A stretch of DNA of 64,000 nt, taken from NCBI GenBank assembly GCA_051047955.1, contig JBPGPT010000017.1, positions 186,001 to 250,000 of the forward strand, given 5' to 3'. The first letter of the stretch is position 1; every line of letters starts with the position of its first letter. The notes under the pieces are model-generated. The model worked only from the letters and a program-made list of their open reading frames with translations. It did no database searches and was not told the origin of the DNA. Source of the stretch: Cystobasidiomycetes sp. EMM_F5 (taxonomy: Eukaryota). Shown piece after piece: positions 48,996 through 54,203 of this stretch. Both the position numbers and the translations under genes were made by a program.

Positions 48996-51363
48996 CTACA
49001 TGTGGTGTGGCATTGATCCTGACTGATTTTGCAGTTGATTCATGTATGCACCGACAGTAACGTTGCCATTGAGCGCTCCAGGAGGCAAAGGTCCGCCCAT
49101 GGCAGGATTGCCCAACTGGCAGTCCTTGTGCGCGATCAGTAGCCGCCTCAAGCCCGCCACTTCATCACGTAACGAAGTGACTGTAGATTGAAGAGTGTCA
49201 TTATCGGCAGTAAGGTATTCAACTCTTTGTTGAAGTTGCTGCAGCCATTGCTTCTTCCTTTGTCGACACTTGAGTGCAGCTATTGACGATGACAGGCTCA
49301 TTATTAGCTGCTGAACCAAGAGGACTACCTAGCATTGAATGTAAACCCACCCTGCCGATTCCTTTCCAGAAAATTCTTTCGCTTGTCCTCTTCGGTCTCG
49401 AATTGCTGCTTTGGACCCTTCTGGCCCCCTTTGCTCGACGGTCCAATGCTACCGCCTCGCTCTCCACCCTCAAAGCTGCCCGCTTGGCTAAGACCATCGT
49501 CCATATCATCGCCGTCATCCATGTCAAACTGCCCATTCCCAAGCAGCTGATCATCAAATTCATTGTCTGATGATACTTTCTTCGCTGCAGCTGAACGACG
49601 GCTCGTTGTTCGTTTTGCCTTTTTCGGCTCGACTTTGGGGACTTGCTGAGTGGATGCAGTTGTATTGTTGGCACCTCGTTTGCGCTTTGCGCCAGCCGGC
49701 TGCAGAGGCCCGTCTGCCTGATTTGACTCGTTCATGCCTGAGTTACCATTGCTTGGACCCTTTGCCAAAGCTGCATTGATTGCGCTGTCAAGCGTCATAT
49801 CAGGAGGTGCCACGGGCTGATTGCGCGAGTTTGTTGCTGACGGCAATTGCAGGTTCACTTGTGTCGGCATGTATTGGCGAAGTGCTGCAGAGGCATTGAT
49901 CATATTACCTGGATTCATAGTAGACGGCACGGGCGGAGGTCCGCCAACATAGGCAGGTCGAGGGGTGCTCAAGCCAGACAGGGCAGCCGCTGCGAGAAGC
50001 GCATCATCGTTTATTGCTTGCTGGATCGGGTCGAGCGGCGCACTCTCAATGTTGACGATGGGTTGGTTCTGCACATTATGCATTTGTGCGGGTGGAATAC
50101 TGTACGGAGGAAGAGGTCGTGGCATAGCTTGGTGCGCAAAGACATGTCGCGGTGGAGATGCATGAAGGCTTCCCGAATGGCCTCGACTATTATTACCAGA
50201 ATCGTGCGAGCCGTCCTGACTGCCAAGCGACGACTTGCCTCGCGTAGACCGATTCTGCTGCTGGGGAGAGCCTTGTGACAATACTGGACTCTCGTACATT
50301 GTGCTCCCAACACCAAACTGCGAATCAAATCGATTAGGCTCCGCATCATGATGATGTCGAGGATGAGACATTATAGTGTCCGTTACTGGTTTCGATACAT
50401 TCGTCACATCCGGCGTTTGATTAGTCATTAATGCAAACAGAGCTTGCGTTGCTGGAGAATGTGGACCATAGCTGCTGGTGTCGATGCCCGCTGGTGTAAA
50501 ACCTGTACGAATTGAAGATGGGTCGAAAGTATTGTGTGCTGTTAAGGGGACAAGGTCAATAAAGCACTCCTGTCTCGATTGCGTGTAGGCTTTCTGCTCA
50601 CTGGTGGCGTTTATAGCAGTGGCGTCACCGCCTAGAGCCCAGCCAAACTGAGAGAACTCGTTACCGGGAGTTTTGACGTAAGGATTTGCTCGATTGACAG
50701 ACACAGAGGGATGGCCAGCGGCTACACCAACAGCGAGCCCTCCCAACCCGCTGGACTGCAATTTTGGCGAATTTGACCGAGCTCGACGGGGTGACGCAGC
50801 AATGACGGATACATTCTTGTTTGATTGATGTGTAGTCGGAGCATACGAGCCCGTCCCAGAGAATGAGTGCTCGAAAGGATTTGGCTCTGCTGCTCTGCTA
50901 TGCTTTCCAAGCCATGCTGGAGATTGCCGGACTGGGGGATCGGAGAGAGCTCGAGTAGTTCTCGCGGCTGACAGGGAATGGAATCAGCCTAGTAGGCATA
51001 ATGTGCACTGTCGACTACGTGCTTACCTTCGTCAGCTTTCGCAGAGGTCTGATCTGCTACACCCTCTCCCCCTGCACCCTTTGCGTTTCTATCGCTGGAA
51101 AACGGTGTATCATTATCGTCGCCGTCGCTGTCCTCGGCTTTGATGGCCTGGGCGTCCTTCAAAGACGAGGCAGTGGAAGGCCTCAGCCAGGACGGGGTGG
51201 AAGCTCCAGCCGAGGTGGGTCCGCCAAAGTACAAAAAGTCGGGCGTTCCCAGTCCCGATTTTGGAAAAGCAAAACCTGATGACGAGCCTGGCCTGCCCGA
51301 GCTGCCGTGGTGGTGACCGTGGCCGGTTTCGGCGTGCGGTGAATGCTTCATCGTCGTAGTCAT
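48996..51363 (-). CDS. ATF1: ATF/CREB bZIP transcription factor Atf1, 4 exons
   Basis: AEPNPFEHSF (Aft1 osmotic-stress motif), IRTGFTP, bZIP EDKRKNFLERNRQAALKCRQRKKQWLQQLQQRVEYL...LIAHKDC. Confidence 0.88.
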
Positions 51364-52158
51364 CGCCTTTGCGATATCGTCCAGCTCTCTGCCGCCCAAC
51401 CGAACCCTCGGAAGGAGTCCACTGTATGACGCTTTCTCCCCAAGGCCGCCCACAGAGTGTGTGTCGTATCCGTCGCCGTTGCTGCTCAGCTGCTGCAGCT
51501 CCTCATCGATATATATGCCTTTGCCTTGCCTTTGCTGCCTATTAGTCCTTGTAATTATCCGATTACTCAGACTGGCTCCTGGCGGAAAGCGAGTGCCGTC
51601 ATCGAGCAAGGGATGGAGGCAGTTGAGGGGCTGACTAAGCAGATCCTAATTGGAGTAAGTTGGATTAGGCTGGATTAGCACCATGACTATCAAAGCAGAA
51701 CAGGCAGTCTTCTAGTACTCTACCGTCGAGTCCGTGTGGTAGTGCTGATAGTGCTTCAAATACCGAACGGCCAGGTGAAGTTCCGCAATAATGATGCGGA
51801 GAAGGGCGACAAACATAACGACTGCACGGTGAAGATAGCGTACCCCCCATAACTACATTCCAATACATGTAACCACATTGACATAGCTGATCCCTCGAAT
51901 GCGCGGATTACCTTAAAGACTGATTATGCCCGTGTTGGTCACACTCGAAAGTATATATATATGAATGCCCCGTCACTACCCTCATACTGCGCCTTATGGC
52001 CTCTTCCACGCGTACACTGACATCCACTCCTATGTTCATTCGGCGAACATCGCTGCGGTGCCCGCCCGGTAAGAGTGTGATAGGGAAGACTGAGGCAAGA
52101 TTCACGGACCTCCATTGAGTACGGCTTGCTTTGCGTGCTTGTTACATGACGAGCAGCA

Positions 52159-52800
52159 ATGCATCTCTTACCGGACCTGCTCACGCTGTGTTTTCTGCAA
52201 GCGTCTCTCACCCTCGCCATGCCCATGATCGACTCTGCACTGGGTAAGACCCATCTCATGGAGCGCAATCTCACAAGCAGAGGGGTCCCGGGATGCGACA
52301 CGATATGGAGAAGTGGCATGTCCGATTTATACGAGCTCGGCAATGGCGGCTTCGACGGTTGTAAGCCATACACGGACAGAGTGCCGCACAACGGCCGTGA
52401 TCCAGTATTGTATGGGGGACCATGCTACTCTGGCCTAAGTTAGTGCAGACCATTGGTCAGCTGTCCAATATTGCTGATACATAACCTCGCAGAGGACCGT
52501 CTTGCATGCAACACACAAGAGTCTCTAGGCCATCCGGAATCAAGCTGGGAGCCCTGCGTATTTCAGTGTCGAGAAGTTTCGGCAGGAGATTGGGTATGGG
52601 TCAAGGTCAGCACATGCAATGCACAGAACGTCGGACAGAACTCGATGACCCCGACGGGTCCCACCTCGTTTCCGTCTGGACATGGTCAGCTTCTCCCCAT
52701 GTGCGGCTACGCTGGATCGGGAGATAGTTGGTGCTGCGGGGCGTATGACCCGAACGATCTCATGTCAAAGGTCAGATGCGTCAGTAGTATCAGTGGTTAG
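52159..52800 (+). CDS. Small secreted cysteine-rich protein (~195 aa; intron 52439-52492), orphan
   Basis: Signal-like MHLLPDLLTLCFLQASLTLA, pro-region ending MER/TSR; GTTAGT...CTGAT...GCAG intron joins two ORFs in frame; 10-11 Cys in the mature part. Confidence 0.7.
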
Positions 52801-53252
52801 CGTTGTAGGCTGTTGTCTGAGTCAGTCATGGCTTCAGACGGTAGGCGTTAGAGCAGGCAGCTTAGGACGAGAATCAATCCGAAAGCAACTCAGTGTTACA
52901 AATGCAAGGTGCAGTTGTCCTCATCGGACGCTGCCAAGCGCCGTAACTATTGCAAGCGTGTTCTTTCTCTTCCGCCGCGTTCTTGAAAATAGGGGTCCAG
53001 AGCACGCCATCGTGGCTTACACAGGGACGGGCTCTTGCGAATTCCATCGAACAATCCTGAAAGAAGGTCGCTGCGAATTTCCCAAAAGACTTGTGTTTGT
53101 GCAAGTCTATCCTTCCAACCAAACTGGCTCCCACTACAACTTCTGAAAAGCAACCTGCTCCAGCAGCCGGAAAGGAGGAATCAGCAGCAAAGCGCAGAAA
53201 AGTAGACGAGACCAACGGACAATCAACGGCGACGCCTGAAGAAGAACCAAAA

Positions 53253-54203
53253 ATGTCACTCAGACTAGGATCAACCGCGCCAGACTTTGACGCAAAGACT
53301 ACCCAGGGCAACTTCAAGTTCCACGAATACATTGACGGCTCTTGGGCAATCCTCTTCTCGTAGGTCCGGATGTGATGCATGTTACGGATACTAAGCTGAC
53401 ATACATCCTACACTCCAATCAGTCACCCAGCCGACAAGTGAGCAACAAAGTATTGCTGCCTTTGAGTTCCGCCTCATTTCTTTCTGTAGGACTCCAGTAT
53501 GCACAACCGAACTTGGTGAAGTCGCCAAGCTCTCAGAAGAGTTCAAGAAGCGTGGCGTAAAGACTATTGGTCTTAGCTGCAATGACCTCGCTTCTCACGA
53601 AGACTGGATTGCCGAGTAAGTCGGCCCCTCACGAGTTTCCGAAAAGCAGCGATCTGACCTGCCGAACAGCATCAACGAGCTGTCCAATGTCGATCTCAAG
53701 TTCCCAATCATCGCTGATGAAGACCGCAAGGTTGCAAAGCTTTATGTACGCTCGGCTTCGACTTGGTCGTTTCCCGCCCACTAATCTCAATAATCCGACA
53801 GGACATGCTTGATGCACAAGACTTGACCAACGTCGATCAAAAGGGCATCCCATTCACTGTCCGCAGCGTGTTTATCATCGATCCCAGCAAGAAAATCCGC
53901 CTCACTCTGCAATACCCAGCCTCGACGGGTCGGCAATTCAACGAGGTTTTACGCTGCATCGATTCGCTGCAATTGGGTGATAAGAATCGCATCACAACGC
54001 CCGCCAATTGGGTACCAGGCGGCAAGGTTATCGTTCATCCAAGCGTTTCGAACGATGAGGCCGAGAAGATTTTCGGTGCCGGCAACGTCGAGTATGCTAG
54101 TGAGTCAAAAAAACGCCGAAAGCGACAGAGGAGCACTACTGACGGTCTGCACACTCTCTGTCAACCAGAGCCATACCTTCGCTTCACCAAGCTTGGCACT
54201 TGA
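53253..54203 (+). CDS. PRX1: 1-Cys peroxiredoxin (Prx6/Prx1 type), 6 exons including a 15-nt micro-exon (53423-53437)
   Basis: MSLRLGSTAPDF, WAILFSHPADKTPVCTTELG, FPIIAD, TVRSVFIIDP, YPASTGRQFNEVLRCIDSLQL, TPANW, KPYLRFT. Confidence 0.93.

Follow-up and report, generated by a model that had tools for sequence, protein, structure and literature searches.

The leader of a 1-Cys peroxiredoxin messenger RNA (mRNA) in the yeast Cystobasidiomycetes sp. EMM_F5 probably also codes for protein. The gene lies in a stretch of 64,000 nucleotides (positions 186,001 to 250,000 of contig JBPGPT010000017.1, forward strand), which is called the window here and is numbered from its first letter. EMM_F5 was isolated from the leaf surface of Magnolia grandiflora and has been placed in the family Microsporomycetaceae (PMC12697161). 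The existing annotation (protein P0001) starts the peroxiredoxin at an AUG, at 53253-53255 in the window. A CTG at 53124..53126 on the plus strand, in frame with this ATG, begins a 43-codon N-terminal extension encoded by the leader (53124..53252, plus strand). The evidence consists of the anatomy of this extension, conservation at the amino acid level that begins at its start codon, and the exchange of leucine, valine and methionine at the start position among relatives. We think it quite probable that the extension is translated as part of the protein and is under selection. We also lean, on the basis of sequence comparison, towards the full reading of a selected, non-AUG-started N-terminal extension with a core resembling a nuclear localization signal (NLS).

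The proposed start codon stands in the context ACCAAA-CTG-GCT (53118..53130, plus strand), with A at -3 and G at +4; the context of the ATG at 53253 is CCAAAA-ATG-T. From CTG to ATG the 43 codons contain no stop and no ATG, and they read (M/L)APTTTSEKQPAPAAGKEESAAKRRKVDETNGQSTATPEEEPK. The frame of the ATG is open upstream as far as a TGA at 53058..53060 (plus strand), giving 64 codons of which 21 lie 5′ of the CTG, and no in-frame ATG occurs between this TGA and 53253. In all three frames ATG is absent from 53253 upstream to 52903 (52903-53252). An ATG at 52902 shares the frame but is stopped by the TGA at 53058, and no splice of compatible phase linking it to the extension was found by eye. 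The original prediction, a model's reading of the window sequence, had claimed a CTG at this position, its context and frame, 43 codons free of stops and ATG, and their translation; all of these proved exact. The extension is acidic (seven glutamates and one aspartate in 43 residues), rich in serine, threonine, proline and alanine, and probably a disordered linker. It contains a conserved core, APAAGKEESAAKRRKVD (53157..53207, plus strand), which ends in the NLS-like basic motif K-R-R-K-V-D (53190..53207, plus strand). A mitochondrial presequence was ruled out, because such a sequence is Arg-rich, amphipathic and essentially free of acidic residues, and the extension has eight of these in 43.

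Chance expectation was estimated from the window sequence. The 129 nucleotides from CTG to ATG contain 9.3% T and 38.8% A, and stop codons are rare in the leader because its T content is low; the remaining two frames of the stretch contain one and two stops. When the stretch was shuffled 20,000 times with dinucleotide composition preserved, 31% of the shuffles had no in-frame stop, 25% encoded a K[KR]x[KR] motif, and 8.3% did both. Among 5,000 shuffles of a 300-nucleotide leader, an in-frame CTG preceded by a purine at -3 and followed by at least 20 open codons and the motif arose in 2.2%. This proportion rose to 7.3% when any near-cognate codon was allowed in place of CTG. A fungal window of 64 kb holds a few dozen genes, so that one chance case would be expected per window or two. 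The low T content of the plus strand (and hence low A content of the minus strand) also accounts for an antisense open frame of 177 codons on the minus strand (52874-53407), which spans the leader and exon 1 and for which there is no evidence of a gene.

Metagenome contigs were scanned with exon 5 of the gene, and 80 loci were kept. The best of these, L001, is a contig of 1202 nucleotides with 86% identity in exon 5, and it has the same HPADK sequence ahead of the active site as the window gene (see below). It contains none of the five introns and is therefore most simply a cDNA-type contig. The L001 ATG is at 270, and an in-frame CTG at 144 lies within CAAACTGGCT, ten bases that are the same in the window. 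The contig extends 143 nucleotides 5′ of this CTG and has an in-frame TAA at 27-29, 39 codons 5′ of the CTG, after which there is no in-frame ATG. The L001 extension is 42 codons long, LASNSNTRSAPVDDKEDSASKRQKVDSAPAPAPAPASTDRAS; its segment KEDSASKRQKVD corresponds to KEESAAKRRKVD in the window. Among the other metagenome loci in the exon-1 table, no upstream frame was similar to that of the window. Locus L061 (80% identity) starts inside exon 1, and so is without a leader.

The coding sequences of the window gene and L001 differ at 99 of 219 third positions, and silent sites are thus close to saturation. The region from CTG to ATG nevertheless aligned with a score of 43, compared with 15.7 ± 2.3 for shuffled sequences, and this score was reached by none of 500 shuffles (z about 12). 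The leader 5′ of the CTG context was at shuffle level (score 15 versus 14.7 ± 2.1, reached by 212 of 500), as was the 3′ untranslated region (UTR; score 19 versus 17.2 ± 2.0, reached by 107 of 500). A frame-blind MAFFT alignment of the two DNA sequences placed gaps of 6, 3 and 3 nucleotides 3′ of the CTG, and of 1, 25, 24 and 9 nucleotides 5′ of it. Local alignment at the protein level scored 61 in frame 0, and 49 and 47 in the other matched frames. Between the 17-codon core and its L001 counterpart, APVDDKEDSASKRQKVD, 38 of 51 nucleotides are identical, with 2, 4 and 7 differences at the first, second and third codon positions. The Nei-Gojobori ratio of non-synonymous to synonymous substitution (dN/dS) for this core was 0.24 in frame 0, and 1.63 and 0.54 in the other frames. 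Two of the differences within the motif itself are silent (AAA/AAG and GTA/GTC).

Protein collections were searched for further relatives carrying the extension. A word-indexed search with the window extension plus exon 1 gave 19 matches from 286 candidates among longer proteins, and 3 from 4 among proteins of similar length, none of which covered the extension. Relatives missed in this way were recovered by a full HMMER scan, in which a profile of the extension plus exon 1 from the window and L001 was run against 1.84 billion representative proteins. It returned 1967 matches at E<=0.001. Six top matches among the best 150 of these 1967 carry a homologous extension, aligned from profile position 2-4. 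All 150 were scanned by script, and 21 were fetched, chosen chiefly because their alignment began early in the query; the extension was homologous in 10 of the 21, and in the other 11 the upstream sequence was unrelated. A second profile, made from an 11-row alignment and run against a collection of 5.8 billion proteins, found nine proteins at 105-134 bits with 88-100% coverage, the next best match having 83 bits and 44% coverage, a sharp drop. This search added two holders of the extension, P0174 and P0175. In all, the extension was found in 14 distinct sequences (the window, L001, P0024-P0029, P0031, P0044, P0122, P0142, P0174 and P0175), which by sequence represent about seven lineages. Its length among them is 32-43 residues. 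In P0122 and P0142 the intron position in exon 1 differs. Annotated proteins of the EMM_F5 clade begin at AUG.

The residue at the start position is L in six of the 14 sequences, V in five and M in three. Leucine is encoded by CTG or TTG, valine by GTG and methionine by ATG, among codons of the NTG type. The methionine of P0122 is internal to the open reading frame (ORF) as called, so its codon must be ATG; for P0025 and P0142 the initial M, and for P0031 the initial V, may reflect the way in which the gene caller recorded starts. Alanine follows as the second residue in nine of the 11 aligned rows, which places G at +4. Directly 5′ of the start position, the read-through residues are unrelated between lineages. 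In the 11-row alignment (window numbering), K23, K26 and V27 are invariant, position 24 is always K or R, and P13 is nearly invariant, and the remaining positions vary, with S, T, A, P, D and E abundant. Position 24 is arginine (CGC) in the window and L001 and lysine in the other lineages, so that at least the first two bases of the codon have changed and the charge has been kept. This exchange, together with the silent changes in the motif, fits selection acting on a peptide and not on a nucleic-acid motif.

The frequency of the motif was then counted among peroxiredoxins in general. From 250 collected proteins with a recognisable peroxiredoxin N-terminus, 104 ORFs had at least 20 upstream residues, and 15 of these had K[KR]x[KR] within 50 residues before the conserved N-terminus. 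Thirteen of the 15 belong to the extension family (L001, as P0023, and 12 proteins from the searches). The other two are unrelated: P0011, in which the motif lies in a run of lysine codons, and P0118.

Two observations concern sequence further upstream in particular lineages. P0024, P0044, P0174 and P0175, which are transcript-derived and form one lineage, begin with M-G, followed by different lengths of read-through of the same leader (18-25 further residues) up to the L at the start position. One reading frame across the 3′ end of a common template-switch oligonucleotide would give Met-Gly. If the M-G has this origin, these four would be 5′-complete cDNAs with cap sites 5′ of the start position. 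In P0026, P0027 and P0028/P0029, a common read-through stretch [IG][EG]KLHHR occurs about 45-65 residues 5′ of the V start, with unrelated residues in between, which points to a conserved promoter or leader element in the DNA of that lineage.

Three sequencing runs each gave one short contig from the gene. The contig of run X3 passes from the end of exon 5 at 54099 into the first bases of exon 6, and the last intron is therefore spliced as modelled. Because it is spliced across intron 5, the X3 contig derives from RNA, and it shows expression of the gene in a public sample. The X2 contig covers 53171-53333 without a break, from the extension into exon 1; it starts 3′ of the CTG, and its origin from RNA is unproven. 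The X1 contig covers 53887-54026 only.

We propose the following mechanism. Ribosomes scanning from the cap would meet the CUG at 53124 first, in an A-rich context that would be strong for a fungus, with A at -3 and G at +4, and a minority of them would initiate there. Context has its greatest weight when the start is not AUG, and in yeast the consensus is rich in A (Kearse and Wilusz 2017, PMC5666671); a strong context in Cryptococcus ends in caaaAUG (PMC7049704). The CUG would be decoded by initiator Met-tRNA, so that the long product would begin with Met and be 43 residues longer than the annotated enzyme. The other ribosomes would cross the 126 nucleotides without AUG and initiate at AUG 53253, giving the enzyme of 218 amino acids. 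The core S-A-A-K-R-R-K-V-D, the sole strongly conserved element of the extension, would probably direct the long form to the nucleus. We infer initiation at the CUG in EMM_F5, nuclear import of the product and the ratio of the two forms from these features; the long form would be minor and nuclear, and the short form major and cytosolic.

The original prediction had suggested that the leaders of relatives be aligned as a check. In such an alignment the CTG and its context, the frame, synonymous changes and the K-[KR]-x-K core are all kept. It had also named an upstream spliced exon supplying an ATG as a case that would refute it, and no such exon was seen in the intron-free L001, which has an in-frame TAA 5′ of its CTG and no in-frame ATG between the two. 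Its claim of a monopartite NLS holds as far as the KRRK core and the retention of K-[KR]-x-K in relatives are concerned; that the core acts as an NLS is a prediction.

Several points weigh against this interpretation. The EMM_F5 sequence by itself does not exceed chance, and it is the comparison with relatives alone that does. At the DNA level this comparison consists of two sequences, the window and L001. The 3-periodicity of the core (2, 4 and 7) is not significant on 13 differences, and frame 0 is ahead of the other frames only modestly. Most of the extension is fast-evolving, 26 of the 41 aligned codons differing non-synonymously between the window and L001. The 12 relatives seen as protein only are ORF calls, in which the start codon is visible only as L, V or M. 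Moreover, ORF calls reveal only open in-frame leaders, since for a relative whose leader is broken by a stop or frameshift the call would begin at the ATG. Openness of the frame in these 12 is therefore not evidence, whereas conservation of the motif and of the start residue is. Five of the ten HPADK-clade proteins begin at the ATG, and are hence uninformative. In EMM_F5 the CTG could fall outside the main mRNA. The NLS assignment is a predicted one, a match to a four-residue consensus. Finally, in L001 an out-of-frame upstream ATG at 41 opens a long overlapping ORF, which would be a rival to both starts on that form of the transcript.

This L001 ORF (41-570) is Gln-rich at its beginning. The CTG, the main ATG and some 100 codons in the peroxiredoxin frame all fall within its span, and the window has nothing corresponding to it. 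The ORF could be a regulatory overlapping upstream ORF, belong to a rare long form of the transcript, or result from a chimeric assembly.

The classical monopartite NLS recognised by importin-alpha has the consensus K-K/R-X-K/R. The window core, KRRK, fits this consensus, and K[KR]xK is present in all 14 holders of the extension. The cores of the window (SAAKRRKVD) and L001 (SASKRQKVD) have K-R-x-K in common with classical monopartite signals, those of c-Myc (PAAKRVKLD) and SV40 (PKKKRKV) (PMC2817886). The likeness to c-Myc, which is a resemblance only, includes the small residues before the core and the hydrophobic and then acidic residue after it.

The alternative that survives best, which we nevertheless consider unlikely, is that the extension is translated from the CUG and selected, and that its core serves in something other than nuclear import: tethering to the nucleolus or chromatin, binding of nucleic acid or a partner, regulated turnover, or some other transport. 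Selection is seen on K-[KR]-x-K-V and its acidic flanks, not on a function. Short basic clusters are also frequent, 2 of 91 unrelated upstream stretches holding one by chance, and the V-start lineages have an additional KR 13-16 residues 5′ of KKQK, so that the signal may be more complex than a monopartite NLS. Against these points, the core fits K-K/R-X-K/R in 14 of 14 sequences, it resembles the proven signals of c-Myc and SV40, flanking small and acidic residues included (PMC2817886), and it sits in an accessible stretch of low complexity.

It is rather improbable that the conserved island works as RNA or DNA, for example as a translational enhancer, a site for an RNA-binding protein or a promoter-proximal element, with the open frame a by-product of low T content. 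Nearly a third of the shuffles (31%) lacked a stop, the bias in codon position was not significant on two sequences, and conservation of the DNA as such raised frames 1 and 2 above background as well (49 and 47). However, every DNA gap 3′ of the CTG is a multiple of three, the exchange of R and K at position 24 keeps the charge, and some changes within the motif are silent. The extension varies between 32 and 43 codons across lineages with the motif retained, and conservation begins at an NTG-type position (L, V or M). A stable or conserved fold was also not found: in folding of the leader against shuffles, neither sequence folded better (window, z = +0.30; L001, z = -1.13), and a search of 52600-53400 against Rfam gave no match at E<=1. 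A scan for promoters and terminators of the bacterial type found nothing, and is not meaningful for a fungus.

A long form might be real and be made in EMM_F5 from a different start, either another near-cognate codon (TTG 53091, TTG 53097 or ATC 53109) or an AUG supplied by an upstream exon. The 21 further open codons 5′ of the CTG do contain near-cognates, and the 5′ transcript structure of EMM_F5 lies outside the contig coverage. Nevertheless, we regard such a start as very improbable. L001 and the window are similar from the CTG context onwards, and further 5′ they match no better than shuffles; the near-cognates in that region carry T or C at -3. In the intron-free L001 the frame is closed by a stop 5′ of the CTG with no in-frame ATG in between, and in the window no ATG occurs in any frame in 52903-53252. 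Chance, in the form of an untranslated leader with no stop and a KRRK by coincidence, or the decay of an extension that once started with ATG, is disfavoured and hardly credible. In favour of these readings, 8.3% of shuffles are open with the motif and P0122 has M at its start position. On the other side, conservation of the island reaches z of about 12 with the 3′ UTR and upstream leader at shuffle level, the frame and motif are kept in 14 sequences, and a CTG in identical context common to two species near saturation at silent sites is unlike a relic.

The enzyme to which the extension would be attached is an ordinary peroxiredoxin of the Prx6/Prx1 type. From the ATG at 53253-53255 the gene has six exons, with GT..AG borders at all five introns, and its product of 218 amino acids is identical to P0001, named in its source 'peroxiredoxin 1 [Cystobasidiomycetes sp. 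EMM_F5]'. Counted from the annotated ATG, exon 1 occupies 53253..53359. It is followed on the plus strand by exon 2, a micro-exon of 15 nucleotides (53423..53437), exon 3 (53490..53615), exon 4 (53670..53745), exon 5 (53802..54099), whose 3′ junction is the one confirmed by the spliced X3 contig, and exon 6 (54169..54203), which ends in the stop codon TGA. P0001 contains an AhpC-TSA thioredoxin-fold domain (PF00578, residues 6-141, E = 1.5e-32, 112.6 bits, cut-off 26) and a 1-cysPrx_C domain (PF10417, residues 163-197, E = 2.3e-9, 37.5 bits, cut-off 21.1). Exon 3 bears TPVCTTE, which matches the peroxidatic-Cys signature P-V/I-C-T-T/S-E (PMC7417364), and P0001 also contains other cysteines.

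The lead-in to the active site is HPADK (53423-53437 plus 53490-53492), where most of the Prx6 proteins compared have an aromatic F or Y. It was found in 10 of 283 collected proteins, all ten from the same clade as the EMM_F5 peroxiredoxin. Upstream of the gene, and transcribed away from it, a neighbour on the minus strand (49325-51645) comprises an ORF of 552 amino acids and an in-line ORF of 218 amino acids. It bears an Aft1_OSA domain (PF11785, E = 5.5e-6), as in stress transcription factors of the Atf1 type. The stress regulator and the peroxide-removing enzyme may use a common divergent promoter region of about 1.6 kb.

If the long form is made and imported as proposed, a housekeeping enzyme of peroxide removal would have a second, nuclear role that is unseen in protein catalogues, and annotation from the AUG overlooks a conserved proteoform. 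More tentatively, and with a little less than even confidence, we suggest that a clade of cystobasidiomycete-like yeasts has a dedicated nuclear 1-Cys peroxiredoxin made solely by non-AUG initiation (CUG/GUG), and that the start codon (CUG, GUG or AUG) is tuned to set the ratio of nuclear to cytosolic enzyme. In the nucleus the enzyme might sense or relay peroxide, or it might protect chromatin. Such a clade-wide form would be a fungal counterpart, reached by another route, of the separate nuclear thiol peroxidases found elsewhere. The exchange of L, V and M would then offer a clean natural series in which the strength of a start codon could be related to the division of one enzyme between compartments. 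As to method, a leader that is open by composition alone can be shown to be coding through comparison with relatives.

Near-cognate starts, leaky scanning and targeting extensions are already well known, and the present example extends them by one case and one family, not by a new principle. Our literature search found no description of a 1-Cys peroxiredoxin with a non-AUG-started, NLS-like extension. The novelty lies in this combination and in its conservation across relatives.

Among the closest parallels is yeast Gpx3, for which an 18-residue N-terminal extension translated from a non-AUG codon was shown experimentally (Kritsiligkou et al. 2017, PMC5368413). There too the leader of a thiol peroxidase encodes an in-frame non-AUG extension, a minor pool goes to a second compartment, and the AUG form is cytosolic, as described in that paper. 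The two differ in that Gpx3 is a GPx-like enzyme, its extension is a signal for the mitochondrial intermembrane space and its start is given as CTT or ACG. The EMM_F5 protein is of the Prx6 type, its extension is acidic overall with a basic NLS-like core, and its proposed start is CTG; the Gpx3 case is experimental and the EMM_F5 case comes from comparison only. The proposed nuclear long form has a further parallel in the high-molecular-weight isoforms of FGF2, in which an extension from an upstream in-frame CUG shifts a cytoplasmic protein to the nucleus and one mRNA serves two destinations (PMC5666671, a review that cites Bugler et al. 1991 for this case). FGF2 is a vertebrate growth factor with several CUGs, unlike the EMM_F5 case; there is no homology, and the parallel is in mechanism only.

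Within the enzyme family, the Prx1-type 1-Cys peroxiredoxins of S. cerevisiae, A. nidulans and C. albicans have an AUG-started mitochondrial presequence (PMC7417364), and thus likewise use the N-terminus for targeting. Extensions of this kind start at AUG, are rich in Arg, Ala and Ser and have no acidic residues, whereas the EMM_F5 extension would start at CTG, and 8 of its 43 residues are acidic. Among our metagenome loci, L007, L016, L017, L021, L022, L024, L043 and L050 have AUG-started, Arg-rich, presequence-like extensions, ending in ..EQPR before LRLGS. The N-terminus of the 1-Cys peroxiredoxin family seems to be a recurrent place for targeting additions.

Cryptococcus, like EMM_F5 a basidiomycete yeast, provides precedents for alternative starts. 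Near-cognate starts in strong context (AUU for ArgRS, and ACG or AUU for LeuRS) give N-terminal targeting extensions there (Wallace et al. 2020, PMC7049704), and GLO1 is made in cytoplasmic and nuclear forms through alternative AUGs (PMC7049704). In the portions of that study drawn on here, the near-cognate cases are mitochondrial, the nuclear case uses AUGs, and none of the enzymes is a peroxiredoxin. The same work reports that weak AUG and near-cognate starts have been exchanged repeatedly in fungi (PMC7049704). The series of L, V and M at the start position of the peroxiredoxin extension has this same pattern of swapping, as reported for dual-targeted fungal enzymes (PMC7049704).

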